Assembly: GCA_964562525.1 (NCBI GenBank)
Contig: CAZLTL010000006.1
Span: 31,187 to 95,186 of the forward strand
Reading direction: 5' to 3'
Source: an uncultured bacterium
GTDB taxonomy: Bacteria; Omnitrophota; Omnitrophia; Omnitrophales; Aquincolibacteriaceae
DNA: 64,000 bases
Shown: positions 6,532-45,437 of the stretch, in pieces
Layout: each line of letters begins with the position of its first letter
How positions within the stretch are numbered: position 1 is the first letter of the stretch
The notes under the pieces: generated by a model
The model's database searches: none
Seen by the model: only the letters and a program-made list of their open reading frames with translations
Told to the model about the DNA's origin: nothing
Program-made: the position numbers and the translations under genes

Positions 6532-7002
6532 ATGATCCGCACTTTAAAGTTCCTTCTTATTTTTTTGTTGCTCGCCGTTTCTGCGTGGGTTGTTTTTATC
6601 AGCGCGTTACCCGTCCTTTTTATCCGGCAAATGGAGCATAAATACGCGATCATTTTGAAAGGGGAGCGCGATCTTGTGTTATTCACACCCCGGTTTAAAG
6701 TCAAAAATGCTTCTTTTGTTTGGAATGACAAAGTGGAATTGCTTCAGGGAAACTTTGACATTCAATTGGATCCGTTGGCGTGGATTCGTGACCGAGTTTG
6801 GGCCATGTCGCTTCAGGGGGACGGCTCCAAACTCCGCTTTTTAGGGGAGTGGCTAAAAAAAACGGGAGTCAGCGAAATTCAGACGACAAAGCTGCGGTTG
6901 GCGCTTGATTTTTACGACGGGGATATTCGTGAAATCCATCAGGTTGAAGTGGTCGCGCCGGATTATCAATTTCAAATTCAAAGCCGTGTCGTACCCCAAT
7001 GA
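6532..7002 (+). CDS. Hypothetical N-terminally membrane-anchored protein (156 aa), translationally coupled to murE
   Basis: TM helix (LKFLLIFLLLAVSAWVVFISALPVLF) followed by a beta-rich domain. Its stop overlaps the murE start (ATGA at 6999-7002). It occupies the slot where ftsL/ftsI usually lie. Confidence 0.55.
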   Translation: MIRTLKFLLIFLLLAVSAWVVFISALPVLFIRQMEHKYAIILKGERDLVLFTPRFKVKNASFVWNDKVELLQGNFDIQLDPLAWIRDRVWAMSLQGDGSKLRFLGEWLKKTGVSEIQTTKLRLALDFYDGDIREIHQVEVVAPDYQFQIQSRVVPQ

Positions 7003-8456
7003 TGAATTTAGAGGGTTTGTTTCAAGCGCTGAATTGCATAGAGAAAAAAAATTGGAATGGGCAAGTTTGTCTCGGAAAAATCACGAAGGATTCGCGTCAA
7101 GTTCAGCTCGGGGATCTTTTCGTGGCTTGCCGCGGACCCCAATCCGATGGGCATGATTTTATTTCTGAAGTTATCGCTAAGGGCGCGGCTGCGGTTGTTT
7201 ATGAAAACGCGAACGTGATACTTCCTACCTCGGTTGTTGGGGTTCGGGTTCAGGATTGCCAGCAAATTTTTCCCGAACTATTGAAACGTGTTTATGACTT
7301 TCATTCCGATTCGTTGAGCCTGATCGGTGTGACCGGCACAAACGGAAAAACTACGATTACCCAGCTTTTTTATAAACTTTTGACATCCCACTTTAAAGCC
7401 GGCACGATCGGAACTTTGTCGTATGAACTTCCTTCCGGAAGCCGTGAGTCTGGAAATACCACACCAGGGCCTGAGACCTTAATTCCTTTATTGGCTGAGA
7501 TGGCTGAGCAAGGAGCAAAGTATGTCTCGATGGAAGTGTCTTCTCACGCGTTGGACCAAAAAAGGGTTGTTGGGCTTGATTTTGAATTGGCTGTTTTTAC
7601 TCAGTTGACTCAAGACCATTTGGATTATCACAAGAATTTAGAAGATTACTTTCAAGCCAAGCGTCGGCTTTTCGAGGAATATCAACCGAAGCATATGCTG
7701 ATCAATCGCGACTGTCCTTTTGGCCGGCGTCTGCTGGCGGAATTTCCGCGCGCGAAATCATTCAGCACCGAAGCCAAAGCGGATTATCAAGCCGTGAATA
7801 TTCAAGAGTCGCTTCATGGCTGTGACTTTGAATTAGCTTTTCGCGGAAAAAATATTCCGGTGCATATCCGGCTCCCATTACATTACAACATTTCCAATTG
7901 CACGGCAGTTTTGGCAGGGTTAGATCTATTGGGGCTCAAACTAGAAGACTATCTGCCGGTTTTGGCAACCATTCCTTTTATTCCCGGCCGCATGGAACGG
8001 GTTCCGCATCCTTCGATTCATTTTTTTGTGGATTACGCGCATACTCCCGACGCATTTGTGCAGGTGTTGAAACATGTGCGTCTGCAGAAACCGAAAAAAA
8101 TTATCACTGTTTTCGGCTGTGGCGGCGATCGTGACCGGACCAAGCGCCCCAAAATGACGCGGGCCGCGGCGGATGACTCGGATGTGCTTGTGATGACTTC
8201 CGACAACCCTAGGACTGAAAATCCCCAAACTATTATGGATGAAATGAAAGCCGGATTAACCGCGCATGACCTCAATAAAATTCAAATTGTGGAAGAGTTA
8301 GATAGAAAGAAAGCAATTTACCGCGCGGTCCAGGCAGCTCAGCCCGGCGACGCAGTTTTGATTTTAGGTAAAGGGCATGAAGATTATCAAATCATCGGTA
8401 AAGAAAAGCATCATTTCAGCGACCGCGAAACTGTTTTAGAAGCGTTGGGACAATGA
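6999..8456 (+). CDS. murE: UDP-MurNAc-L-Ala-D-Glu--2,6-diaminopimelate ligase
   Basis: Mur ligase P-loop GVTGTNGKTT. The DNPR motif (TSDNPRTE) is typical of meso-DAP-adding MurE. Position in the dcw cluster. Confidence 0.95.
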   Translation: MMNLEGLFQALNCIEKKNWNGQVCLGKITKDSRQVQLGDLFVACRGPQSDGHDFISEVIAKGAAAVVYENANVILPTSVVGVRVQDCQQIFPELLKRVYDFHSDSLSLIGVTGTNGKTTITQLFYKLLTSHFKAGTIGTLSYELPSGSRESGNTTPGPETLIPLLAEMAEQGAKYVSMEVSSHALDQKRVVGLDFELAVFTQLTQDHLDYHKNLEDYFQAKRRLFEEYQPKHMLINRDCPFGRRLLAEFPRAKSFSTEAKADYQAVNIQESLHGCDFELAFRGKNIPVHIRLPLHYNISNCTAVLAGLDLLGLKLEDYLPVLATIPFIPGRMERVPHPSIHFFVDYAHTPDAFVQVLKHVRLQKPKKIITVFGCGGDRDRTKRPKMTRAAADDSDVLVMTSDNPRTENPQTIMDEMKAGLTAHDLNKIQIVEELDRKKAIYRAVQAAQPGDAVLILGKGHEDYQIIGKEKHHFSDRETVLEALGQ

Positions 8457-9751
8457 ATCCATTTTCGATTGATACACGCACGATTCAATCGGGTGATCTT
8501 TTTATTGCTTTGGATGGAACCCAACAAAAAGGGTATTCGTTTTTGCCCGAAGCTTTCAAAAAGGGCGCCGCTTCAGCTTTATGCGCGGAAAGCTATCGCG
8601 CGCAAGTCTCTCCTGAATGGATTCAGCGGGTGAGGTTTGTTCCGGATCCCGTTTTGGAAATGGCAAATTTAGCGCGGGAGCATCGCAAGCAATTCGATAT
8701 TCCCGTGATCGGGGTTGTCGGTAGCGTGGGTAAAACATCCACCAAGCAGTTTCTGTCCTATTTGCTTTCAAGACATTTTAGAGTTTTAGCCACCACGGGA
8801 AATTTAAATAATCAGCTCGGTCTTCCGATGATGCTGAGCCGACTCAATCCAGAGCACCAAAAGGCTGTTTTGGAAATGGGCGCGGATCATGTGGGAGATC
8901 TTGCTAACTTAGTCAGCATTGCAGCGCCCGACAAGGCTGTTTTGACTCCCATTGCACCCGAACATTTATTGGGGTTTGGTTCTTTAGCGGGAGTTTATGA
9001 CGGAGAACTTGAGATTTTACTTTCACCTCGACTTAAAACAATCGTCACCGTCGCGGGCGACAAGGAGCTTGACCGCCGTTTGAGTGGATGGTCCGGAAAA
9101 GTGATTCGCGTTGGATTTTCCAAAGAAGCGGATGTGGTGATATCTGATGTTTGTATCGAAAACGGAAAGACTCTTTTCAGAGTTCAGGGTCAGCAGGTGA
9201 CTTTACCAACTACGGCATCCTTTTTGGCGCTAAATGCGGGGCTTGCCGCGGCTATGGCAGTTGAGGCGGGACTTCAGTTGTCGGATATTGGCGGAGAATG
9301 GAATCCGGAATTGCCGAAGGGGCGTTATGCCGCGCGTAATATCGCTCGAGATATTACGGTGATTGACGATACATACAACTCAAGTCCCAAAGCTTTTTCC
9401 GCCGCGTTGGACGCGTTTAAAAAAATAAATTTTAAACGAAAATGGATTATTTTTTCTGATATGCTTGAGCTGGGAGCGGAATCGGCGCATTGGCATGATG
9501 TTTTGGCGGAGGATATCGCTCAATCGGGTGTTCACGCCGCTTGGGCTTTCGGCACTGAAGCTAAACGAACGATTCATCGATTAGAAAAGCGGGCCGGCAC
9601 TATCAATAGCCGTTGGTTCCAGAATGCTGAAAGCTTGGCGGAAGAATTGGTGCTGTGCGTTGAACCCGGAGATGGAATTTTGTTTAAGGGGTCGCGCGGT
9701 ATGCGGGTTGAAAAAGTTTTAGAGATTTTAGAGAAAAAGATCGCTGTTTAA
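8453..9751 (+). CDS. murF: UDP-MurNAc-tripeptide--D-Ala-D-Ala ligase
   Basis: Mur ligase P-loop GVVGSVGKTSTK. 4-nt overlap with murE. Order in the dcw cluster. Confidence 0.93.
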   Translation: MNPFSIDTRTIQSGDLFIALDGTQQKGYSFLPEAFKKGAASALCAESYRAQVSPEWIQRVRFVPDPVLEMANLAREHRKQFDIPVIGVVGSVGKTSTKQFLSYLLSRHFRVLATTGNLNNQLGLPMMLSRLNPEHQKAVLEMGADHVGDLANLVSIAAPDKAVLTPIAPEHLLGFGSLAGVYDGELEILLSPRLKTIVTVAGDKELDRRLSGWSGKVIRVGFSKEADVVISDVCIENGKTLFRVQGQQVTLPTTASFLALNAGLAAAMAVEAGLQLSDIGGEWNPELPKGRYAARNIARDITVIDDTYNSSPKAFSAALDAFKKINFKRKWIIFSDMLELGAESAHWHDVLAEDIAQSGVHAAWAFGTEAKRTIHRLEKRAGTINSRWFQNAESLAEELVLCVEPGDGILFKGSRGMRVEKVLEILEKKIAV

Positions 9752-9771: not shown

Positions 9772-10857
9772 ATGCTTTATTTTTTGCATCAATTTGCATC
9801 AGAATCGATTGTTTTTAACCTTTTTCGGTACATTACTTTCCGCGCTGCCGCTGCCGCGGTTTGCGCTTTTCTTTTCAGTTTGCTTTGGGGACCGCGCTTA
9901 ATTCAGGATTTAAAAGCCTTGAAAGCGATTGCTAATAACCAGCGCGAACACGCTGAGTCCATTCATCACCTTTATGCTGATAAGAAAAATATTCCGACCA
10001 TGGGTGGCGTGCTGATTGTGCTGAGTGTTCTGTTTTCTACTTTGTTTTGGGCGAATTTAACCAACCTTTATGTTTGGCTTTTGATCGCGGTTTTGATCGG
10101 ATTCGGCTTTGTAGGGTTTCTCGATGATTGGCTGAAACTGCGGTATCAGAATTCTAAGGGGTTGCATGGTCGGCTTAAACTTCTCGGACAAATTTTGACG
10201 GGGCTTTTAATTGCTTGGGTTTTGTATCACTCCGATACTTTTGGACGCATGCTTTACTTTCCATTTTTAAAGCAGCCGATTTTGAATCTTGGAATTTTGT
10301 TTATTCCTTTCGTGATTTTTGTTTTGGTCGGAACTTCCAACGCGCTCAATTTGACGGATGGTTTGGATGGCTTAGCGATTGGATGCGCGTTTTTTACGGC
10401 ATCGACATTCGCGGTATTAGCTTATGTGACAGGCCGCCAAGATTTTACGGCTTATCTTTCAATACCTTATTTACCGGGCGCGGGTGAAATCACCGTTTTT
10501 TGCGCCGCTTTGGCCGGAGCTTGCGCGGGGTTTCTTTGGTATAACGCTTATCCTTGTCAAATTATGATGGGCGATACTGGCTCCCTTTCGCTGGGCGGCG
10601 TCATCGGTACGGTGGCTGTCCTTTTGAAAAAAGAATTTGTACTTGTGATTGTCGGCGGTATTTTTGTTTGGGAAGCCCTTTCCGTGATTATTCAGGTGAC
10701 GAGCTTTAAGCTGACGGGGAAGCGAGTTTTTTTAATGTCGCCGTTTCATCATCATTTGCAGAAATTGGGATGGCCTGAGAATAAAATTGTAATTCGCTTC
10801 TGGATTATTGCTTTTATGCTCGCCATCGTCGGTCTCGCTACGCTGAAAGTCCGATAA
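9772..10857 (+). CDS. mraY: Phospho-N-acetylmuramoyl-pentapeptide transferase
   Basis: Polytopic membrane protein with NLTDGLDGLA and MGDTGSLSLGG motifs and a C-terminal HHHLQ. Confidence 0.96.
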   Translation: MLYFLHQFASESIVFNLFRYITFRAAAAAVCAFLFSLLWGPRLIQDLKALKAIANNQREHAESIHHLYADKKNIPTMGGVLIVLSVLFSTLFWANLTNLYVWLLIAVLIGFGFVGFLDDWLKLRYQNSKGLHGRLKLLGQILTGLLIAWVLYHSDTFGRMLYFPFLKQPILNLGILFIPFVIFVLVGTSNALNLTDGLDGLAIGCAFFTASTFAVLAYVTGRQDFTAYLSIPYLPGAGEITVFCAALAGACAGFLWYNAYPCQIMMGDTGSLSLGGVIGTVAVLLKKEFVLVIVGGIFVWEALSVIIQVTSFKLTGKRVFLMSPFHHHLQKLGWPENKIVIRFWIIAFMLAIVGLATLKVR

Positions 10858-10861
10858 AAAA

Positions 10862-10977
10862 ATCAGAAATCAGAAATCAAAAATCAGAAATCAAAGCCAT
10901 AACTTAGAATTCAAAGATGTTCGAGCATCTAAATGTATTTAATCTATGGTTCTGAGCTCTGATTTCTAAGCTCTAAA
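10862..10977. repeat. Intergenic heptanucleotide tandem-repeat element with an inverted distal arm (mraY-murD spacer)
   Basis: Five tandem heptamers, ATCAGAA ATCAGAA ATCAAAA ATCAGAA ATCAAAG, at 10862-10896. The distal arm TTCTGAGCTCTGAT TTCTAAGCTCTAAA at 10950-10977 has a reverse complement that again reads ...ATCAGAG CTCAGAA. The imperfect dyad is centred near 10920. Confidence 0.8.
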
Positions 10978-10983
10978 CTTATT

Positions 10984-12237
10984 ATGAATAATCTTCCTCC
11001 GGATATCGGAAAAAATGTGGTCGTTCTTGGTTTGGGTGAAAGCGGCTATCAAAGCGCGCTTGAGCTTCAAAAGCTGGGTTTTGATGTTTTTGCCACGGAT
11101 AAATCCGATACGCAAATTTTAAGAGAACGGGTCGATGCTTTGTCACGGAAAGGCGTTCAAGCGGAATGCGGAAAGCATACTTTTGACCGCGTCCAGTCAG
11201 CTGACTGGGTTTTAATTTCTCCCGGTATTCCGCCGCAATCAGAAATTTATCAGGCGCTTTTAAAATGGAAAAAGCCGGTTTACAGCGAAATTGAAGCAGC
11301 CAGTTGGTTTTGCCCTTCAAAAAATATTGTTGCGGTGACGGGCTCATGCGGAAAAACTACCACCGTGACCCTCATTCAAAGAATTTTAAAAGAAGCCGGC
11401 CGTGATGTGGTGTTATGCGGCAATATCGGCAATCCTTGGATCGGAGAATTGTCCAAAATCAAGCCTGAAACTTGGGTCGTTTTGGAAGTCAGTTCTTTTC
11501 AGCTTAAACATTGCCGCAAATTCAAACCCCATATCGGAGTCTTGCTTAATATTCATGCCAACCATCTTGATTGGCATCCTTCTCTTGAAGACTATGCTCA
11601 TTCAAAGTTGAAAATATTTGAAAATTTAGTCAAGCATGACTGGATGCTGCTTCAACAATCAGATGAAAAGCAATATGGTCCGATTCGTTCTTCCTCGACC
11701 AAGCATTATTTAAACCCGGTTGGGCAGGAGAGTTTGCTTGAAAATGCCGCGCGCCAAGTTGCTGAAATTGCGGATATTTCGTTTTCGGTGGTGGAGCATG
11801 TGTTTCGCAACTTTGAAGGGCTTGAGCATCGGCTTGAAAAGTTTTGGGAAAGTGACGGCGTTCAAGCCGTGAATGATTCCAAGTCCACGACACCCGCTTC
11901 GCTCATTTGGGCTTTAGGGCGTTATCCTGATCAGAGTGTGGTCTTGATTACGGGCGGCAGAGTTAAAACGCCCTCTTTCGTGGAGTGTTTGCCCGCGCTT
12001 AAGGCGAAAGCAAAAAAAATTGTTGTGATCGGTGAAGCACAGCCTATGATGCTTCAAGAGTGGGCCGAGCTGAATCCTCATTCCGCCGAGTCGCTTGCCG
12101 CTGCTTGCAAAACCGCATTGGCTTCTGCCCAAAAAGGGGATACGGTCCTTTTTTCACCCGCTTGCTCCAGCTTCGACATGTTCAAAAGCTACATCGACCG
12201 CGGTAATCAGTTTAAATCCCTCATTCGCCAAAGATAA
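10984..12237 (+). CDS. murD: UDP-MurNAc-L-alanine--D-glutamate ligase
   Basis: N-terminal Rossmann VVVLGLGESG and Mur ligase P-loop VTGSCGKTT. Order in the dcw cluster. Confidence 0.94.
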   Translation: MNNLPPDIGKNVVVLGLGESGYQSALELQKLGFDVFATDKSDTQILRERVDALSRKGVQAECGKHTFDRVQSADWVLISPGIPPQSEIYQALLKWKKPVYSEIEAASWFCPSKNIVAVTGSCGKTTTVTLIQRILKEAGRDVVLCGNIGNPWIGELSKIKPETWVVLEVSSFQLKHCRKFKPHIGVLLNIHANHLDWHPSLEDYAHSKLKIFENLVKHDWMLLQQSDEKQYGPIRSSSTKHYLNPVGQESLLENAARQVAEIADISFSVVEHVFRNFEGLEHRLEKFWESDGVQAVNDSKSTTPASLIWALGRYPDQSVVLITGGRVKTPSFVECLPALKAKAKKIVVIGEAQPMMLQEWAELNPHSAESLAAACKTALASAQKGDTVLFSPACSSFDMFKSYIDRGNQFKSLIRQR

Positions 12238-12434: not shown

Positions 12435-14013
12435 ATGAATAGAGTCCCGAGAATTTACAAGCTAATCGCAGTGTTTACCGCACTTTGCTTAGAGTGCACG
12501 TCCATCTCCATTCCCACTTTGCATGCTCAAACAGTTCCGCAAAATATTCTTTCTGTAAAAAAACTGAATCCTGAGATTCTTAAATTACCGGAAAAGTTTG
12601 GTGAGGTGGTGGAAAGCCATGCGGGAAATGGAAATGTGATTGTGGTGCAGGACGCGCACGCAATTCCGGATGCGCAGAAGAATATCGCGAATGTGATCAA
12701 GTATATGCAGCAAGAGTATGGCGTGGGAACCGTTGCACTTGAAGGTGCGAGCGGCGATCTCGATCCGCAAATCTTCCGCAGTTTTCCTGATAAGAAGCTG
12801 CTGCGAGAAGTGATGAACGGGTACATGAATTCGGGTGAAATCGCGGGCGGTACGGCTGCTGCGATTTTCGACGAAACCACAACGAAGTATGTCGGGGTAG
12901 AAGATTGGGATGTTTATGAAGAAGGTTTGGGGCTTTATCTCTCCGCGATGGATAAGACCGCAGCCATTGAAGCTCAGCTATCTGCTTTGCGTGAAAAGTT
13001 AAACAAGGAAAAAGAAGCGATTTATCCGCGGGCGTTACTTGAAGTTGATCACGAGATCGAAAAGTTTTATGAAAATGCCGCGCAGCTAACGGAACTGATT
13101 AAAGTGTTGGGAGCGATTCAAGCCCCTAAGGCAGGCAGTGAACTTGAAGCGGTGTGGAAGGAAGTTTCGAAAGCCCACAGTCCGGCGACCGGAGGCGAGA
13201 GAAAGGACATAGAGGTTCGTGCTTTAGCAGCGAAGGTCGAAAAGGTGTTAAAGAGCCCAGGGGCGGTGAAAGCGTTTAACAGCCGTAAACAAGAATGGAT
13301 GACAGGTCAGATCAGCGCAGAAGCCTTTGCACTCAATTTGAAAGAGTTTGCTGATCAAAGCGGACTTAATCTTGAGATGTCCTCCGATTTGCTCGGAATG
13401 GTACGAGACCAGCAAACGTTAAAGGGGCTTGAAGGAACCAAGCTGTTTCGGGACTTAGAGATTTATATCCGTGAAGTGAAGATGCAGTTAACGCAAAGAC
13501 AACAGACGGATGTTTCGGTTAGCGGTGTGAATGCTGAGATGTCAGCGATTCGGGCGTTGGATGAACGGACGAATTCACTGCGTGTATTAACGAAGCTATC
13601 AAAACTTGAGTTGTCCCGCCAAGAGTGGACGAATTTATCGGGGAATTTGGTGTTTGAGGCCTTTGCGGCATTGGGATTAAAACAAGAAGACTTTCTGTTC
13701 CACCTCGCTTTTTATCTGAATGCTGAAGAACGCGACCAAATCTTTTTCGATAATCTCAAAGCTTCGGTCACCGGCCTCCGGCCTTCCGTGATTGTGGCCG
13801 GTGGTTTTCACGCGGAAGGAATCACGAGCCGCCTCAAAGAGGCGGGAATGGGCTATGCGCTTGTGATGCCGAAGATCAATCACATTCCTGAAAATAACTC
13901 GTACAAAGCGCAGATGCGCGGGGAAGTGTCGTGGAAAGATTATTTTGAAGTTGAGAACGGTCGCATCCATCTTTACAAGGCGTTTGTGCGCGCAACGCGC
14001 GACAAGCTTGTCG
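12435..14013 (+). other. ORF A head module: signal peptide plus split TraB/TIKI/ChaN-like domain
   Basis: The signal-like N-terminus is [11 protein letters not shown]...[41 protein letters not shown] and [12 protein letters not shown] resemble the GTxH...VE and GxGHxxG motifs of TraB/GumN/TIKI-fold proteins. The same motifs occur in ORFs B and C. Confidence 0.5.
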
Positions 14014-17000
14014 CAGACCGGAGACCGGAGGTCGGAGGGCAGAGTGACTCAGAGCTCCGGACCCCGGACTTAGGCCTATTAAAAGCTTGGCGCGATCAAA
14101 TCATCCGTGATTTATCGGATATGGGGAAGGTGAATCGCGCGGCCTGGTACACACGGTTTATGGATGAAGTGGTGGACGAAAGCCTGAAGCACACCGATGC
14201 CGACAAGCTGATGATCAAAGTCGACAATTTTATCCGCGGTTTGCGCGGACTTGAGAAGAACAATCAAATTGATCAGGCAAATATAGCGGATTTACTCAAG
14301 GCAAGTATGGCGTCACCTGCTGTTACTTCCCCAGCTGTTGTCGGTACCCCGCTGTCGTTTCCGGTTAATCCCGCAAGTGAAGTTACCATGCAAGAAGCAT
14401 GGGCTAGCGTCCGGGAGTCTCTTCCTGTCGCCATAATTAATGCTTCTCCAGCAGATAATACGCAGTTGCAAGAGCAGGTGACGACGATTCAGGCAAATGA
14501 GCCAATTAATTACAGTGGACTCTCAGCTGAGTTTGATGCAGCAGCTATTAAGCAAACGGCCTTACTTAGCAATTTGGTTCGGCGGGTCTCAAGTATTACC
14601 GATGCAGATTTGGAGTATGAGTGGAATGAAATGGGACGACTTCTTCGTTTGGTGAACGGGATGAAAGGAGAGCCCGACCCGCGAGATCCGGAAGCAATTT
14701 TTGGTTCTGAAGAGCGCAATTTTAAACTACCGGTTGCAATGCGTTCCAAAATTGTGCGCAGTTTGAGTGAGCGAATTCAGTTTAAGTTGGCATGGACGCA
14801 TGCTGTAAATACATTTTTGAACGATGCTGAAGGTGTATCCAAGTTGGCAAGCCGGGCTGCCCCTGCATTAAGAGAGAGTAATGATGAGGGCGCGGCTGTT
14901 GAATTTGAAGTTTTGTCTCCTGGACAATTAACGGACGAAGAATTCTACCGTACTCTTTTGGGCGACAACGGAACCGTGAGCAATGGGTTGATTGGTTCGG
15001 GAAATTTAGTAGCAGCTTTTCGACTTGTTACTCAGAAAATGGCCGTCATGATCAAGGCCGGACCCGAAGGAGTTCCCGGTGGATCAAGAGAGCTAATCAA
15101 GCGCGTTCATGCCTTAGATGGAGTCGCTAAAATGATCCGCGATGAAATTACAACAATGCAGCGCTCCGAAGCGCGGGTTAATGAAAATGCGCCGACAGAT
15201 CAGGCGGCACGGGAGGAAGCGCTTGCAACTGATGAGAAGCTGAAAAGGCTTGATGTCACGACTTTCTTTAAAGAGATCCTTAAATCGGAATGGAAGTGGT
15301 TGTTGGTTGGTTTTGTTTTATTAATTTTGAGCACCATGCTCTACGACTTAGTCGCTGTTACTACGGTCGCGCAATTTTTTTTAAAATCTCTGGGGGTGGG
15401 TGTTGGTTTCTCTTGGGGTGCGATTTTGCTGTTCAATCCTTTGACAGTGCTTACCCATGAATTAGGGCATTTTCTAACCTACCGATTAGTTGGCGGTAAA
15501 TCCGATAACACGTTTGGTTTTAATAGGCACTCCTACTTTTTCAATGCAGATGACATATATAAACTCCCCATATGGAAAGTTCGGATTGTGGATATGGGTG
15601 GGCTTGTGATCAACACAGCTATTTTTGCCACAATTGGTCTTATTTCGTATCTTACTTTGGGCGCGACCCCTGTTCTTATTGCTCTCGCTGGACTTCAACT
15701 TGCTGAATTTATAATGGCTTCCGGTGATTATGAGAAATTCTTCAATGCCAGAGGGTATCAGGCTTTGAGCCTTGATATTGCAAAGTTTCAGGAAGAGATC
15801 AAAAATTACAAACCTGAATTTCATGCAGATGGCACGCGAATATCGGCTGAAGCTGATCGCCCTTTGGATGAGCAAACTCAACGCGAAGCACGGGTGGATA
15901 AAACAGAAGAGGCTTTGAGAAGTGGGGCGTTAACAGTTGAAGGGAAAACGGCGGTTTTTGGCCCTCAGGCGAATAAAGATTTTGCGATAGGAGTAAGCCC
16001 GGAAGTTTCATTTGTGGATTTAGATAAAGCCGATTTTGTAACGAAAGCAGAAACATTTCTCTTTCAATCGCTTTTCTTTGCGGCGGCTTTTTTAAAAATC
16101 CCTGTTGGGAAAGAGCAGAAATTAAATACTTACAAGGAAGTATTTGAAGCGCTTCAAAATGCCAAAGCCGCGGTCAAAAATGCCGGTGGCTTAAGCTTGT
16201 ATGCTGCCCAAGAAAAATTAAAAGAAGCCCAAGCTGAAAAAGATGAGTTTGTGGCTGAAGCTCAAAAGAGAGGTTTTGCCGAGTTTTTGCTTCCGGGTGG
16301 AATTCTAAGCCGCCGCATGGAGATTTTTGTTCCCAATGAAAATCAGCGCGAACGGCTTTTAAAGTATTTAACCTTAACTTTTGTAGGGCAAAGTAAGGAA
16401 TCGCTGCTCTCAGACATTCTGAAAGTGCAGCAAAAATTAGGAGTCACTTTTGATCCGGCGGTTCTTGAGCAGCTTTTAGCCGAGTTTGAATCAAAGCGCA
16501 GCTTCATGTTTCCCGGGGGAGTTTTTGCCGGGAAAATGGATGCAGAGATTCAAGATATTTTTGGTCAATTTATTCAGGTGAAAGTTTTAAGTCAAACCCA
16601 AAGTGTTTCAAGCCCCTCAGTTGGAAATATTCAGCTCAATCTTTCAGGTGCGTTGGTTATGGGGGCAGGCCAATCTGAAGTCGCTGTGGATTGGGATCAA
16701 GTTTTACAGTCAGGAGAATTGGCTCCGGCATGGTCTGAAGCTTTTACTGCACAGCTCAAGAAGGCGCTCATCTTTAAAGATGGGAAACTGCGTGTGTTTA
16801 ATCTCGGGACAGGCGACCCCACCCCGTTTAGCCAGAATCAAGATTACACACATATGGCATTTATTGTGAATGGGAAAATGATTGTTACCGATCCGTCCAT
16901 TCGCAGTATTCGTAATCTTGAGCGTTTGGGATTTTTGGAAAAAGTTGAGGCAATTCATCTGACCCATGTTCACTTTGACCATGTAGGTGGCATTTTAGAT

Positions 17001-20000
17001 ATAGCGCGCCGTAAACTCAAAAAATCGGAATCCTTGCCTAAGCTTAAGCTGGTTATGCCGACTGTTGTTGCGCTGCAACTCGAAAGAACTCTTGCTTATA
17101 ACTTTTCCACGATGGCTGATGATTCAAATTATGATTTCAGCCAGCTTGCGCTGGTCAGCGAACTTTTCGATTATCGGGGACCTGAGAAAATCAATAAAAC
17201 GATAGAAATTTCCCAATTACAAGAATCTGCAGAGTTTAAAGGTGTTCAAATTGAACTTGCACCAACGTTTGGACACCCGATTCCAACCTACGGAGTCAAA
17301 TTGATTACTCAAGAGGGTTTGAAGATAGCCTATTTGTCCGATTCAGTGATGCCAACCCCAACGATTAAAGCAGCGGATGGAAAGGCAATCCCTAATCCTC
17401 GATATTCGGAGTTTGTAAGTTACTATGCGGATTCAGATATATTGATTGCTGAAAATGGCGTGCCGGGCGTGCATATTACTCCCGAGCAGCTTGCCGAGGC
17501 TTTCCCTGAGCATATTAATAACGGAACTCTGTTTACTGTTCATTCGTCGGGTCCCCAAGCTCAAAAAGGGTTAATTCGATTTATGCCGGGCATGATCTTG
17601 TCTCCGCTTCAATCGAATCAAAGAAAGCAAGATGTTCAGCAAAGTGCAGCGACGCTCATTGAGAATGAAGCTATTCGAGATTTTTTAAAGTTAAATTTAG
17701 AGTTAGCCCAAGAACTTTCGAGTATGGGAACGAAGGTTTCATTTTCTGAGGGGGAAGTTCTTTTTCAGCAAGGCAACCCGGTTTATGACTTTGATCATGT
17801 TTATATTTCTTTATCCGGCGAAACAATCGTTGAGGGGCCCGGTGCAAAGCGGCTTCCTTCGATTGGAGCTGGGAGATTAATCGGTGAAATGGCGCTTTTG
17901 ACTAAGGCTTTGACGCAAGAACAATATGACCAGATCATGGTAGCCATCGGGAAGGGTAAGGATACGGCAGCGCTCGATTTTTTTGGGAGAGTGACTTACG
18001 ATTTGGTAATCGAAGGGCAGCCTCCTTATCGCATTGTGAATCCAAGTTTTGACTTAGAAATAGAAGCGAAGGAATTGACGGAGGATCAAAAATCAAAGTT
18101 AAAGCCTGTCTTTGATATTGCAAAGTCAGGTAAACCCATTCCGCGATCGGTAACGGTTCGGGCAGGTGCGGGAGCAACTTATTTAGCGATTCCCAAAGAT
18201 GCTTTTTTACAGTTTTTAACACGAATTGATGCGTCAAAAATCGATTCGAGTCGACAAGCATTCATTTCAGCTATTTACGCACAAATTGGCATCAATCTTG
18301 ATTCTCGAAAAAAGATGAGTGAGTTAGCCACTCCCACTCAGAACGAAACAGATGTGGTAAAGGCATCAGCTGATACGTCAGTTCGCTCCGAAGCGCGCGC
18401 GGATGTTGAATGGTTTAACTGGCGCGTGGACAAACAAGGCAATCCAGTTTCGAATGCCGGGCCTATGAGCGAGCTTGTCACTTTGAATGTTGGTGACAGT
18501 ATCTACTTTGAGGTTCCAAAAAATAAGCCGGGTTTGATCGACTATTACTACCAAGTCGGAATGGAGGGCGAGAATTTTACTTTTCAGCGCTATGAACAAA
18601 GCGGGTCTGTTGCTCAACCTGCTGGTAAGAAAATCGAAATTCCCCGATCACTGCAAACGGATAAGGCCGCTAAAAACAGTGATAACTATCTATTTAGTTT
18701 TCAAGTTAATAATGGAAAACTAATGGTGAGTTCAGGCCAGAAATATGGCTTGCTAAAAAGTAAGGTTAAAAAAGACGGAGCGATTGGTGATAGTAAACCG
18801 AGCGTGCGACGAAAAAAATTTGACGATGCCGCTCGGTCTTATCGTGAAGCATTATCAAAAACAGATTTCCCCAGGTTGAGAAGTTTGTCAGCTGAATTAG
18901 ATGAAAAAATGGACGAAATTTTGGGGGTGGCTACGAATGGTTTATTTCTAATACCGCTTGGTTGGCTTGAAGGACGAATCAAAGAAATGGATGCGGGGTT
19001 GCGTCGAATTGAGAGACATGAGTTATCGGGTCAGGGTAAAGAAGCTTTGGGCTGGGCGATGCAGGTGCTGACGGAACAAATCAATCATTTTCGAAATTCT
19101 GTTGTTGCTGTTAATTTAGAACTCAATCTTTTGACCCAAGGAGAGAAAATTAATTACGATGTTTTTAGTGAGTTGATAGAGAGCTTTCTTCAAACCAACA
19201 GCTTATTTGCATTATCTCAAGAGTTGAATGTTCGCATGCAGTCCTACCCTGAGACAATTGAGTTCAGTTTAAAAAATGTCGATGCCGATTCAAAGATTTC
19301 TGCGCTTAAAAGGCGAATTTTCGATTATGGGCAAGCAACGGCTACTTTGACGCGTCTTGAAGACGCTCGAATATTTTTTGAGAACAGCTGGAAATTGTAT
19401 GATGATCTTGTTGGGTTGATTCAGCAAATGGCATTAGAAATTCAAAGACGTGATGAAACCGAAATGACGATTGAAAGAGGTGCTGAGGCAGCAAAAGAAC
19501 AGCGCAATCAGCTTTGGCGGAGTATTGATTATTATGAAGTGCTAGGTGTTTCTCGAGATGCTTCTCTAGGGGACATAAAAAATGCTTATCGCAGTTTAGT
19601 TCGCGCGGGTAATCATCCGGATAAGGTCGCAGGCGACTCTGCTACGCTAAAAGCAGCTGAAGAGAGATTTAAAGAAATAGGACCGGCATATGAGGTCTTA
19701 AGTAATGAAGTAGACCGCGCTGAATATGACAAAATTCATTTTGCCCGTTCCGAAGCTCGTTCGGTAGACTCAGGGCAAGCGCGGGACTCGTATGAGCGCT
19801 ACAAGCTTTTATCAGGGACTTTGGCAGATTTACCTGACCCTGTATTTGTCAACGATGGGGAAACGATTACTTTGCGGATTCCGCATGATGAAGTCGAAGG
19901 TAGTCAGCCCGAGCTTGATCTTTTGGTTGTATTCAAAAAATTTAATGGGAAGGTGTTTTTTGCCCACCTAGATTCATTTTCAGACTTATCAATGCTTGAT

Positions 20001-23000
20001 GAATATTACCGTTCTGCTGATCCTCTTCAGGAAGGTTCTCGAATCAAATGGGAAGAGGTGAACGAGACTTCAGAAGTTGAGATTATAGGTCGTGAGGAGG
20101 AAATGGATAGTGAGGGTACCAAGGTCAAGATTGTTTTTAGTGAACAGGGTTTTACGATTGCCAATGCCTCGATCTCGGATGTTTATTATTTTGAGGGTAA
20201 GCCCGGTCCGGAAATTATTGCTTCCGCTCTTCGGGATAGTTATCTTTCAAGTGCGAGCACAGGTTTGCCCATAGCCACCGAGCCAATTTTTATTGCCGGG
20301 GAGGATGCAACTGAAATTTTTAACTTGGTCACTGAGTTTATTAATCAGGGTCCGTATGTTCCTGCTGCAGGCGAAACCGCTCTCTACACAAAGGTGAAAC
20401 AACAAATTAGGTTGATTACCGAAAGAACCGGCGAAAAGTATCGATTCAACCCGATGATTCAAATAAATGCCTTAAGTGATACTTATAGAGCTTTAAACAA
20501 TTTTCTCATGAATCGATTTACTGACCTGGAAGGCTTGGAAAAAGGTGTGGTCATTCTCAAGCGAATTCCTAATCTTGAGAAGCTGATCGAAGTTTTAAGA
20601 CATTTAATATCAGCTTACGAGCTGGCTTTTAATCACCTTGAGAATTCAACTATTGAGATCGAGGTGGATGAAAAAGAAAACCATCGGCGTCATGCCTTGC
20701 AAATGCTGGTTGAGTTAAAAAAGATTGTTAATTCATATGATTCAATTCCTCCTGCCGAACGACCGCGGGCTGAAATCCAAGGAGAAGTTCGAATGGCAAG
20801 GTTGCCCAGCCAAAAAAACTTTTCCGAGTTCATTTCTTACAATGGCGATAAAATTCCACTTTGGGCAATTAAAAGAATTTATCTGCCGGATAATAGGGTT
20901 ATTCAATTTGGTGAGATTTCTCAGGCTAATAACGAGGATGGTGTGTATGATCGGGAGGATCGCACGAGAGACGTTAGGAATGCCTTGTCACCATTTCCAG
21001 AGAGTGCGGAGATCGTTTTTGAGCTGCAAGATGGCGTTTTATTAAAGCGAATTTTGGAAGCGGAAGAGTATGAGACGATAACGGCAGTCTATCCGGTTGA
21101 TTTTGACCCCAAAGAATTTAGCAGGCTTCCGCACGGAATAGATTTACCGGAGCGGCGGTTTATAAATGCAGTTAACGTGAACGGGTTTATTACCACCCTT
21201 TATGAGTTGGAATCTCTTTTGCCTGAGACTGGGTTAGCCGGCAGGACAGTGACTTTTTTCTATTCCGCGAATAACCATCTTCAAGCCTTCAAAATCAGTG
21301 ATGAAGCTAAACCTCAGTCTGAGCAATATGTTTACTCTCAGTTTCGAAATTCAAGCAATGTTCAGCCTATGTCCGCGCCTTTTTCTGCTCAGGAAACTCA
21401 AGAAATTGCAAAAAAGGATTTGGTTGACCTATTTGCGGATCTCTTTAATCGCCGTGCGTTGACCTCCGCGCAGAGGGTGGTTCCGTTGAGCGCGCTTATT
21501 CTTCAATTTTTGGCTGTCTCGCTTAACGCTAAGGCTGTTTCAGATTGGGCTCAGGAAGGCAAAGTTCCGCTGTTTGAAGTTGAGTTGGCGAACGAACAAA
21601 CCATTTCATTCAGCGGGCTTAATCCTGCTTTACATCACGATGATGCCGTGCGGATTGAAAGACTGCTATCTCAGATTGACGGGGGATTGGATGCCGCTTC
21701 TTTTCGAATTGTTTTGGCGCCTGCTGGACCGGCTACCCAGTCGAATCAAGCGGGGCAATTTTTTGATCGACCCGGGCGTGGTTTGGATGAGTTCAATGCC
21801 TGGCATAAGTTATCTGATGTCTTGGAACTGTTTTTTCTGTCAGTGGGCGAAACTGGCAAAGACAAGAAATTGGATGCTGCGTCAAAACAAAAACTTTTAG
21901 ATAAACTCGCCGTGCTTGTTGAGGCGATAGCCATGATTCATCCTTCAGTAACAGGAAGTGAAATTTATCATACTTTATATGCTGTCATGGATGCTTCAAT
22001 GTTTAGGGCTAAAAAACTAGATACAGGCAGCAGAATCAATGTTTTGATTAATTTGGCGCGCCAAATCAGAGCCGCTGCGCCTCAAGATCCTCAACAGAGC
22101 ATTTATGTGCAAGGTGAGTTTGAATCAAAATTAAAGACCCCAAACTTAGATCTAAATGAATTGGCAAAAGAGACTGCCCGCTCCGAAGCCCGTTCGGCAG
22201 ACTCAGGGCAAGCGCGGGAGGCTGAGGCGGTTGCGGGAGATGTGTTTGGCTTTTTTAAATCGCCCGCGGATTATTCTGCAGACCAGATAAATACTTTGGC
22301 AGATGAAATTGATACATTGGCTGATAAACAAGGGCTTGATGTTTTTGTGAATCTCTTGCGATCGATAGCTCGAGACTTAGCTGTCGTTAGTGTTCAGGGG
22401 AGCGAAAATATTTTAAGCAAAGAAGCGACAAGTTTTGCCGTGAAACTTTTTGTTGGACGCATGATGGCAGCAAAGCGGCAGTCGACTTTAATAGATGTAA
22501 AAATCGAGAAGCCAACCATTGCTTTAGCATTAAAATTGAATGATGCCCAAAAAGCTTCTCTGGGAGATAAGTTGTCCAGCGAATTGGCTGAAATTCTGGG
22601 TGCGGTTCAGATTGAGGCCAAAGATTTTAAAGAATTAGGTGCGTTTTTTAAGAGCGTAGGGGTTTTAGTGACAACGATTGATCCCGATCTAGCAAACGCA
22701 GTTGTATTAGAAAGTTTTGGTGCGGATTGGAGTGGTTTACCTGCCGTGGGTGTCTTAGAAGAATCGCAGCAATTTGATTCGGAGTTAGAAGGGATGCGTA
22801 TTTATTTGCAGCTTTTGATCGCGGCTTATTTAGCTCGGAGCTTTCCGGATAAGAAAGTAATTTTGACACCCGAGATTGTTGGCGAGATTAATAAGCTGCT
22901 GTTTCAATCTGATGCAGGGCAAGAAGGAATTGTGCAGATACAAAATGGTCAGTTAGTTGTTAAACGAAGCAGTCTGCTGGCATATATTCAAACCTTATTC

Positions 23001-23033
23001 GCGGCGCAATCTGCCGTTGCAGTCGCCGCGTAA
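12435..23033 (+). CDS. Giant modular protein A (3,532 aa): signal peptide, head module, multi-enzyme cargo, tail module
   Basis: Uninterrupted 10.6-kb ORF. Recognisable in-frame motifs occur along its whole length (see the domain sub-features). Its N- and C-terminal modules are paralogous to the ORFs at 41847 and 45438. Confidence 0.85.
13179..13199 (+). repeat. In-frame heptamer triplet AGTCCGG CGACCGG AGGCGAG (encodes SPATGGE)
   Basis: Three 7-nt units (21 nt) inside the ORF A head module. Confidence 0.55.
14015..14070 (+). repeat. In-frame heptamer repeat with inverted arm (AGACCGG AGACCGG AGGTCGG ... CCGGACC CCGGACT)
   Basis: Direct reading of the sequence. The arms match as reverse complements at 11 of 14 positions. 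It encodes [18 protein letters not shown] at the end of the head module. Confidence 0.75.
15291..15755 (+). other. ORF A cargo: M50/S2P-like intramembrane metalloprotease-like module
   Basis: Several hydrophobic helices. HELGH (15456-15470) lies within a predicted TM segment ([18 protein letters not shown]), as in site-2 protease/M50 families. A downstream MASGDYEKF may supply the acidic ligand. Confidence 0.55.
16786..17560 (+). other. ORF A cargo: metallo-beta-lactamase-fold hydrolase domain
   Basis: The HxHxDH signature [10 protein letters not shown] is at 16965-16982. Downstream are His/Asp positions (TFGHP, YLSDS, TVHSS). Confidence 0.75.
17650..18230 (+). other. ORF A cargo: cyclic-nucleotide-binding (CAP_ED-like) domain with a large internal insertion
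   Basis: [30 protein letters not shown]...[12 protein letters not shown], then about 75 aa, then [26 protein letters not shown]. Confidence 0.65.
19527..19742 (+). other. ORF A cargo: J-domain (DnaJ N-terminal domain)
   Basis: [34 protein letters not shown]...[23 protein letters not shown], with the HPD tripeptide at 19614-19622. Confidence 0.85.
22179..23030 (+). other. ORF A tail module (shared with ORFs B and C)
   Basis: It starts at the last RSEAR motif and ends ...[38 protein letters not shown]. Compare B ...EDGIEKAGKNWRITKPSLSRLKDIWQRFQAALQVMQSA* and C ...EQEGVGRYKLTNNSLVLYLETILADIEALLATAQSA*. Confidence 0.6.
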
Positions 23034-23073
23034 TCTTTTCCTTATCAGCACCACAAGTCCCGGGTTGGTTTTG

Positions 23074-23108
23074 GTCGTTGGTCTCTAGTCGTTAGTCTTT
23101 AGTCTGTG
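23074..23108. repeat. Intergenic heptamer tandem array (GTCGTTG GTCTCTA GTCGTTA GTCTTTA GTCTGTG) between ORF A and ftsW
   Basis: Five 7-nt units. The reverse-complement units (TAACGAC, CAACGAC) are the same unit seen in frame at 42670 and 46658. Confidence 0.75.
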
Positions 23109-34165: not shown

Positions 34166-34259
34166 GATTAAAGCCCTCAGGGTTGATATTCGGCATTATA
34201 AAAGAGGACAACAGCAGCACCAAGCCCAAAAAAGAAATAGAAAAAGCTGCGGTGACTGC

Positions 34260-34288
34260 TTGTCCGTGTTGGATTGTCCCGATATAAT
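34260..34288 (+). promoter_or_regulatory. Candidate sigma70-type promoter for the gcv operon
   Basis: TTGTCC (34260-34265), a 17-nt spacer, then TATAAT (34283-34288), about 36 nt upstream of the gcvT ATG. Confidence 0.4.
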
Positions 34289-34324
34289 CACGGCTCATTC
34301 TTCTAATTTGAAAGGGCTTTTTTT

Positions 34325-45272: not shown

Positions 45273-45283
45273 TGTTGTTACCC

Positions 45284-45310
45284 CCATCCCGGATCCCGTA
45301 TCTGGGATGG
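45284..45310 (+). terminator. Stem-loop after ORF B (CCATCCCGGAT-CCCGT-ATCTGGGATGG)
   Basis: 11-bp stem with one G-U pair, 12 nt after the ORF B stop. No clear U-tract follows, so it may be an RNA-stability or processing hairpin rather than an intrinsic terminator. Confidence 0.4.
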
Positions 45311-45437
45311 AGGGAGCATTGGCGAGCAGAATATAACAGAGGGAAGCGTTTCTAATGGCTGTAGGAATGTTTGTTTGATTTACAAATTTTAATAATGTAT
45401 TGTTCTCAGAAAATTATAGAGGTTTATAAAGGTTTTA

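Follow-up and report, generated by a model that had tools for sequence, protein, structure and literature searches.

The stretch of DNA analysed here (hereafter the window) comprises 64,000 nucleotides of contig CAZLTL010000006.1 (positions 31,187 to 95,186; assembly GCA_964562525.1) and contains the dcw (cell-wall/division) gene cluster of a Candidatus Omnitrophota bacterium, whose nearest named genomes by MurD are UBA2337 (89%) and GFS_12873 (77%). Within this cluster, mraY and murD are separated by a 126-nt spacer, which is a real non-coding, hairpin-forming insertion; it looks like the small intergenic palindromes of other bacteria and not like a new kind of system. The spacer is inserted where several relatives have a tight junction, folds beyond chance expectation, is conserved above the neutral level in a second species (locus L003, from GFS_12873), and lacks coding, promoter and terminator signals. 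It adjoins the mraY stop codon (TAA, 10855-10857) and runs up to the murD start codon (ATG, 10984-10986). The surrounding genes lie on the same strand, and their neighbours are tight or overlapping. An earlier note on this DNA had stated that the neighbouring dcw junctions are all 0-20 nt or overlap, which does not hold throughout the window: the junction between murD and a giant open reading frame (ORF) measures 197 nt, that between the giant ORF and ftsW 89 nt, and a later one 44 nt.

Anatomy and fold of the spacer

The spacer contains the following features, given with the two flanking genes; columns refer to the alignment of the window with L003.

9772-10857, + strand: mraY, 361 aa (NCBIfam TIGR00445, 404 bits; ORF list)
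10858-10983, + strand: the non-coding spacer, 126 nt (from the sequence, the lack of an ORF of at least 20 aa, the composition and the tight junctions in relatives)
10862-10896, + strand: five tandem ATCARAR heptamers (Tandem Repeats Finder, TRF; consensus structure)
10881-10908, + strand: predicted 5' arm of the conserved long stem, containing the conserved core TCAAAGCCATAACTTA (RNAalifold on window and L003, columns 24-51)
10915-10930, + strand: predicted apical hairpin AGAUG-loop-CAUCU, with a 5-bp helix that is invariant in both species (columns 58-62 with 69-73)
10938-10965, + strand: predicted 3' arm of the conserved long stem, including UAUGGUUCUGA and CUCUGAUUU (columns 81-108)
10950-10977, + strand: two tandem 14-mers, TTCTGAGCTCTGAT (10950-63) and TTCTAAGCTCTAAA (10964-77) (sequence; inverted-repeat pairs)
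10966-10983, + strand: unpaired A/U-rich murD leader without a Shine-Dalgarno motif (consensus fold; junction comparison)
10984-12237, + strand: murD, 417 aa (NCBIfam TIGR01087, 347 bits)

The G+C content of the spacer is 29-30%, compared with 45.7% across the window. The five heptamers read ATCAGAA (10862-68), ATCAGAA (10869-75), ATCAAAA (10876-82), ATCAGAA (10883-89) and ATCAAAG (10890-96), and TRF reports the array with a period of 7, 4.9 copies, 92% matches and a score of 61. They lead into the core GCCATAACTTAGAATTCAAAG at 10896-10916. On the distal side, the two 14-mers consist of four inverted heptamer units (YTCTRAK), i.e., the 5' heptamer in inverse orientation, and the exact complement of AGAAATCAGA is found as TCTGATTTCT at 10958-67. 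Six bases (CTTATT) separate the second 14-mer from the murD ATG. Every sequence statement that the earlier note had made on this anatomy (five ATCARAR heptamers, a core, two inverted 14-mers and the ATG 6 nt further on) is exact. In the consensus fold, the first three heptamers (to approximately 10880) are unpaired and the last two form the outer 5' arm of a long stem, which has 23 pairs interrupted by small internal loops. The leader string TAAACTT is common to the window, L003 and a third locus, L005, and occurs as a shorter AAACTT in locus L010.

Heptamers are found elsewhere in the window. The 89 nt that separate the giant ORF from ftsW contain the tandem units GGTCGTT, GGTCTCT, AGTCGTT, AGTCTTT and AGTCTGT (23070-23105), which have no inverted partner, and the fold z-score of this spacer is +0.8. 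Approximately one third of the TRF rows for the window are period-7 or period-14 arrays.

A scan of the whole window for inverted repeats with arms up to 150 nt apart places the two longest, 10854-10889/10950-10985 and 10872-10906/10940-10974, in the mraY-murD spacer. The arms of the first are 72% complementary over 36 nt, and the inner arms 71-88%. The + strand RNA of the spacer folds at -26.6 kcal/mol (z = -3.66), an energy that none of 200 shuffles equals, and the - strand folds at -34.2 kcal/mol (z = -3.69). Of the 11 intergenic spacers in the window, this one has the lowest fold z-score. The imperfect palindrome that the earlier note had described is therefore a single long imperfect hairpin beyond chance by shuffles, and the comparison with shuffled controls that it had proposed finds a stable fold. 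The stem is mostly A-U, and the minimum free energy (MFE) structure represents only 1.3% of the + strand ensemble. Because the 3' arm is the same heptamer inverted, several pairing registers are possible; the offset inverted-repeat pairs I1, I2, I8 and I12 correspond to alternative registers of the 14-mers with the 5' heptamers.

A further structured intergenic stretch lies in the divergent region 34166-34324; its 126-nt tile 34166-34291 has a z-score of -3.4, and the whole spacer one of -2.1.

The mraY-murD junction in related genomes

A MurD search returned a tight clade of approximately 12 proteins at 72-91% identity, followed by a gap to approximately 54%. The contigs of the relatives were retrieved and their mraY-murD junctions were read. 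A contig identical to that of the window is present in SRR13355622. The longer junctions fall into types A, A', B and C; the identities given are those of MurD with the window.

L020-22 (outgroup): MurD 54%, junction 1 nt
L014: MurD 74%, junction 1 nt
L008/L009: MurD 71-72%, junction 2 nt
L018/L019: MurD 74%, junction 20 nt
Window (L001 identical): type A, 126 nt
L003: MurD 76-77%, type A, 123 nt
L005: MurD 76%, type A', 140 nt
L012: MurD 77%, type A', at least 157 nt
L006/L007: MurD 74%, type B, 166 nt
L011: MurD 86%, type B, 188 nt
L013: MurD 74%, type B, 304 nt
L004: MurD 91%, type C, 175 nt
L010: MurD 88%, type C, junction cut by the contig end

The junction is thus 1-20 nt long in L008, L014, L018 and L020, compared with 123-304 nt in nine others. 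Because the outgroup has 1 nt and members of the clade itself have 1, 2 and 20 nt, the comparison indicates that the tight junction is ancestral and that the spacers are derived insertions. The comparison with relatives that the earlier note had called for bears out a structured insert, with a tight ancestral junction, a significant fold and type A in a second species.

Type A is shared by the window and L003 only. Their spacers are 74% identical overall and 85% identical across a 75-nt core, and at third codon positions the two loci are 46.7% (mraY) and 46.9% (murD) identical. In a sliding comparison, the spacer core matches well-conserved coding stretches in conservation. Conservation is highest in the stem core, the apical helix and the 18 nt that directly precede the ATG, and lowest in the heptamer tail. 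Judged from these identities, type A is conserved far above neutral divergence.

The type A' spacers of L005 and L012 differ from type A in sequence and are again heptamer-built palindromes. They share with type A the heptamer habit and the strings CTAAGCTCTAAA, AATTCAAAG and AACTCTGATTT (TAAACTT in L005 only); MAFFT does not align them with type A. A covariance model (R1), which was built from the two type A copies, matches the A' spacers weakly and with composition bias (E = 0.4-1.2 over all loci), and the alignments contain large deletions. The fillers of L004, L010, L011, L006 and L013 are unrelated to type A. Type B has a core, TGCTCRGRCAGT...AACTCGCA, inside long stems of varying sequence, together with a 3' hairpin, and type C, with a higher G+C content, folds into several hairpins.

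The spacer type does not track the MurD or MraY relationships. L004 is the nearest relative of the window (MraY 99% identical in amino acids and 88% in nucleotides), yet its spacer is unrelated. In this pair, the next spacer (murD-giant ORF) is alignable at 64-78% and the mraY-murD spacer is not, which points to replacement and not to drift. Likewise, the spacers of L003 and L005 cannot be aligned, although L005 is the nearest relative of L003 (81%).

This distribution fits a selfish or neutral mobile insertion, and such an insertion is the main rival to the reading favoured below. It would be MITE-like (miniature inverted-repeat transposable element) or recombination-borne and would do nothing for the host; the window and L003 would resemble each other because of recent horizontal spread and not selection, and the palindrome would consist of terminal inverted repeats belonging to the element itself. 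We regard it as possible, though well short of probable. In its favour, type A occurs in the window and L003 (76%), while the nearer L004 (91%) and L010 (88%) carry type C and L011 (86%) carries type B; type C is present at two different dcw junctions in different genomes; and the size and A/T richness resemble those of ERIC and Correia elements (PMC3184786). Several observations oppose it. Both type A copies occupy exactly the same junction, with matching orientation. Coding DNA on the flanks is no more similar than elsewhere, and the sliding comparison of the window with L003 shows no local identity peak in the adjacent coding DNA of the sort that marks a recently transferred block; therefore, a recent transfer would need base-exact boundaries. 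No target-site duplication is visible: the left flank reads CCGATAA/AAAAATC and the right flank CTTATT/ATGAAT, with no direct repeat abutting both ends. TA flanks are not seen either, and the excision of a TA-flanked unit would remove the mraY stop.

Searches for further copies point the same way. The search of all nine spacers against all loci with blastn-short returns no second type A copy, and model R1, applied to 163 kb (the window and 13 related loci, i.e., approximately 100 kb of related contigs), finds only the junction copies of the window and L003; this negative is weak, since the window is a few percent of the genome and the clade is rare in the Joint Genome Institute (JGI) and viral collections. 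The pattern AAAGCCATAACTT-N30-50-TGGTTCTGA has three matches in the JGI metagenomes, all in unrelated coding DNA and at about the chance estimate, and none of the 19 matches of the 16-mer core in viral contigs fits the model. The related copies that the earlier note had proposed to look for are thus not found in these limited data, in which the element is unique. Its suggestion of a REP/MITE-like insertion stands in part: presence/absence and replacement polymorphism and the occurrence of type C at another junction agree with it, and the missing second type A copy and target-site duplication do not.

The earlier note had also pointed to a 14-mer, TCAAAGCCATAACT, that recurs in an open reading frame it named ORF C. 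The recurrence (46271-46284) is real, but as evidence of dispersal it is at chance level, and the match was rejected as a dispersed copy: 18% of dinucleotide shuffles of the spacer give a match of at least 14 nt with the rest of the window. A longer match, the 17-mer AGGTCAAAGCCATAACT, links the L003 spacer to this site in ORF C; 0 of 400 shuffles reach that length. This match is unexplained and is held as probably due to chance, because nine spacers were examined and both contexts are of low complexity (TCAAAG-type). Within a 4733-aa ORF (45438-59639), the stretch 46247-46284 consists of four AGGTCAA heptamers and, after them, AGCCATAACT.

The type C family is dispersed, with copies between mraY and murD in L004 and L010 and between ftsW and murG in L003 (89% identity over 66 nt). 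Comparison of the L003 and L004 copies shows six pairs in which both partners have changed. In L004, the last codons and the stop of mraY contribute to the closing stem. The type C pattern has no match in viral contigs. Since type C occupies a second junction and a palindrome is found in the ftsW-murG spacer of L006, the dcw junctions of the clade repeatedly hold hairpin-forming elements. By the same sequence comparisons, the murD flanks are a hot spot, with at least three unrelated families of structured spacers upstream and a giant gene or toxin-antitoxin genes downstream.

In a further, unlikely explanation, the mraY-murD junction and other dcw junctions of the clade would be selected to carry some long intercistronic hairpin. 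The unrelated types A, A', B and C would have been recruited and exchanged repeatedly for the same role, and the element would be one allele of a convergent structured-spacer system and not a parasite, its heptamer arms forming a register-shifting hairpin whose length can vary by slippage. If true, the shared role could be that of a processing site, by which murD and the downstream giant or toxin-antitoxin genes are uncoupled from the upstream cell-wall genes.

The following members and neighbours of these families were noted as observations in their own right. The type C copies lie at 2344-2466 in L004, 1-80 in L010 and 8072-8190 in L003, and are bounded by a terminal inverted repeat, CCGTTGAAAAAAG...CTTTTTTGAACGG, around an internal G+C-rich hairpin. 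The type B copies lie at 5460-5625 in L006, 985-1172 in L011 and 34-337 in L013. Their core is enclosed by stems of 23-27 nt, whose sequence varies between genomes while complementarity is kept, and contains an insert that varies from 16 to 110 nt. Close to the start of murD they have a conserved hairpin, GAGAAACG..CGTTTCC, and the family has no Rfam match. The L006 palindrome (8022-8088) has 29-nt arms built of GATCA/CTGA motifs. In L003, a G+C-rich palindrome with 39-nt arms (1379-1458) is located just upstream of a fused murE-murF gene.

Strand, coding and transcription signals

The two type A sequences were used to compare the strands. For the + strand, RNAalifold gives a consensus of 28 pairs with an energy of -24.7, all of which are kept in both sequences; six of the 28 have one-sided changes, all of the kind A-U/G-U, C-G/U-G or U-A/U-G. 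The consensus energy of the - strand is -15.95. Because a consensus structure drops broken pairs by construction, the changed pairs were recounted with each single-sequence MFE structure as the reference. The ratios of kept to broken pairs are 7:2 and 6:3 for the + strand and 6:8 and 6:7 for the - strand, a pattern that modestly favours pairing in the sense-strand RNA. The fold energy alone was rejected as a criterion for strand, since the window and L003 contradict each other: the + strand of the L003 spacer folds equally well as or better than its - strand.

These data bear on a reading in which the spacer is an independent small RNA gene or gives rise to a - strand antisense transcript. The more stable - strand fold in the window (-34.2 kcal/mol) is in line with it. 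It is opposed by the weaker two-species - strand consensus, in which 7-8 changed pairs break, by the + strand fold of L003, by the lack of promoter-like or terminator-like sites on either strand and by the lack of an Rfam match; we consider it scarcely probable. At the gathering score, Rfam has no match in the window and eight related loci, and at E <= 5 it returns only sub-threshold eukaryotic miRNA and snoRNA hairpin models, which are generic matches to A/U-rich hairpins.

No ORF of at least 20 aa is contained in the spacer on either strand. A 12-codon reading from an ATG, MFEHLNVFNLWF, was considered as a small peptide and rejected, since an indel in L003 destroys it. An integron attC site was also rejected: CCATAAC and GTTATGG violate the RYYYAAC...GTTRRRY pattern, and murD is a core gene and no cassette itself.

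A role at the DNA level would place a regulator on the heptamer arrays in an iteron-like manner, an internal promoter in the spacer, or both, with murD and the giant gene as a separate transcription unit. The five direct and four inverted copies of one heptamer, the A/T-rich composition (approximately 30% G+C) and a TTCTGA-N18-TAAACT arrangement just upstream of the ATG, which is conserved between the window and L003, agree with this view, and the promoters of Omnitrophota are uncharacterised. The dcw cluster is broken right after murD by a 3532-aa gene in the window or by a toxin-antitoxin pair in L005 and L012, and therefore a sub-operon boundary is plausible. However, the sigma-70 scan finds no promoter at 9 or more of 12 matches on either strand of the spacer (the best pair found by hand reaches 7/12), and a period of 7 bp does not put the sites on one helix face. 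A DNA-level role is less likely because, between the window and L003, conservation is lowest in the heptamer array and highest in the stem core, and because the G-U-type substitutions in the stem preserve RNA pairing and not DNA pairing or a motif. We judge it quite unlikely.

A transcription attenuator or terminator between mraY and murD, which the earlier note had offered as one possibility, would account for a stable hairpin between two genes of one operon. However, the long stem is A/U-rich and contains few G-C pairs, its 3' flank is CUAAGCUCUAAACUUAUU with no U-tract, and the intrinsic-terminator scan is empty for 10858-10983 on both strands. In addition, no promoter for murD itself is detectable, and the gene is essential. 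This reading is very unlikely and, like the antisense or small RNA reading, has little support. Elsewhere in the window, a G+C-rich 14-bp hairpin (45273-45320) directly follows a 1141-aa ORF and is terminator-like without a U-tract.

A proposed intercistronic hairpin and its precedents

We tentatively favour a lineage-specific, co-transcribed intercistronic hairpin of the ERIC/Correia/BOX kind that would act post-transcriptionally and was inserted in an ancestrally tight junction (1-2 nt); among the readings considered it is the leading one, although we do not give it an even chance. On this reading, the spacer would be read through within the dcw messenger RNA, and the sense-strand RNA would fold into one imperfect hairpin of approximately 85 nt, with 23 stem pairs and the 5-bp apical helix. 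An unpaired A-rich heptamer tail (approximately 20 nt) would precede the hairpin, and the unpaired A/U-rich murD leader (18 nt) would follow it. The stem-loop may serve as a determinant of processing or stability, either as a double-strand-specific or RNase E-type cleavage site or as a barrier to 3' exonucleases. It may also separate murD translation from mraY translation, which would have been coupled at the ancestral tight junction, so that murD would start from its own unstructured leader without a Shine-Dalgarno motif. The co-transcription, the role at the RNA level and the consequences for nucleases and translation are what we infer from the fold, its conservation and the precedents below.

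Several points weigh against this proposal. The element is known from two sequences only; the counts behind the strand asymmetry are small, and the consensus structure of the two type A sequences shows no double compensatory substitution. When the window is taken by itself, the more stable fold is that of the - strand. The dcw cluster can do without the element, which is missing or has given way to unrelated sequence in the nearest relatives (L004, L010, L011), and therefore any function would be accessory or generic to hairpins. Mobility or allele replacement would explain the patchy distribution as well as selection would. The stable stem stops 19 nt short of the AUG, with no obvious control of murD initiation.

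The precedents for an intercistronic hairpin come from other bacteria. Both ERIC (approximately 127 bp) and Correia elements are transcribed together with their neighbouring genes and influence how stable the mRNA is, via RNase E or RNase III; for ERIC, the effect is on flanking mRNA and involves RNase E (Delihas 2011, PMC3184786). Like ERIC, the whole 126-nt element is one non-coding imperfect palindrome that fills the intergenic space in an operon; unlike ERIC, with which it shares no sequence similarity and which belongs to another phylum, it has arms of tandem heptamers, no TA flanks or target duplication and one copy per genome fragment so far. The ERICs of E. coli are reportedly few and largely immobile, with substitutions that preserve the RNA structure, as is said of the work of Wilson and Sharp from 2006.

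The Correia (CREE/nemis) hairpins of Neisseria are co-transcribed and are substrates of RNase III (De Gregorio 2002, cited in PMC3184786). They resemble the spacer as intergenic inverted-repeat elements of 104-157 bp with presence/absence differences between close relatives, but have conserved 26-bp terminal repeats, a TA target duplication and hundreds of copies, none of which is found here. The string AAAAATCAG, which the spacer shares with Correia elements, is only a 9-mer and is taken as a coincidence. The Neisseria dcw cluster is said, from work by Snyder in 2003, to be among the places with such inserts, with transcriptional effects. Similarly, the BOX elements of Streptococcus pneumoniae reportedly lie in transcribed intergenic regions (a report attributed to Croucher, 2011). 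The spacer resembles BOX in its modular design, variable number of tandem sub-units and stable hairpins; it differs in its units of 7 or 14 nt and its single known copy, compared with boxA/B/C modules of approximately 45-60 bp and more than 100 copies.

REP/BIME elements are intergenic palindromes in operons that stabilise the upstream mRNA against 3' exonucleases (PMC3184786). REPs are G+C-rich, measure 20-40 nt, number in the hundreds and are mobilised by RAYT transposases, whereas the element described here is 126 nt long, has 30% G+C and is single-copy so far. Of the traits of MITEs (including ERIC and Correia), terminal inverted repeats and presence/absence polymorphism at orthologous sites are present here, and dispersed copies (in the 163 kb searched) and a target-site duplication were not found.

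None of the papers found on Omnitrophota mentions the element, and the preprints on giant genes do not deal with dcw, murD, intergenic repeats or palindromes. To our knowledge, Omnitrophota have no cultured members and no studied non-coding repertoire. The element would be the first small palindromic intergenic element described for this phylum; it opens no new mechanism and settles no long-standing question. Its interest would lie in the murD flanks as a place at which the clade tolerates and exchanges foreign DNA in the normally rigid dcw cluster, and it bears on the rewiring of essential operons in ultra-small, possibly predatory bacteria. It may also aid genome annotation, since such spacers are neither genes nor assembly errors.

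The genes around the junction differ among the relatives. The 3532-aa giant ORF (12435-23033) is inserted between murD and ftsW in the window, and its counterpart in L004 has 3501 aa, with Pfam matches to Lactamase_B, Anti-Pycsar Apyc1 and, faintly, cNMP_binding. This ORF is absent from L003, L006 and the outgroup, in which ftsW directly follows murD. In L005 and L012, a PIN/PhdYeFM toxin-antitoxin pair takes its position, followed in L005 by a large ORF. The murD gene of L018 (610-1368) and L019 (548-1306), two independent contigs of one relative, is called at only 252 aa, i.e., the N-terminal 58%, and is followed by approximately 290 nt of uncalled DNA; a frameshift, pseudogene or split gene may account for this. 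Upstream of mraY, murE and murF are separate with a 4-nt overlap in the window (6999-9751), L006 and L008, and are fused into one ORF of approximately 950 aa in L003 (1506-4355) and L005 (5889-8756).

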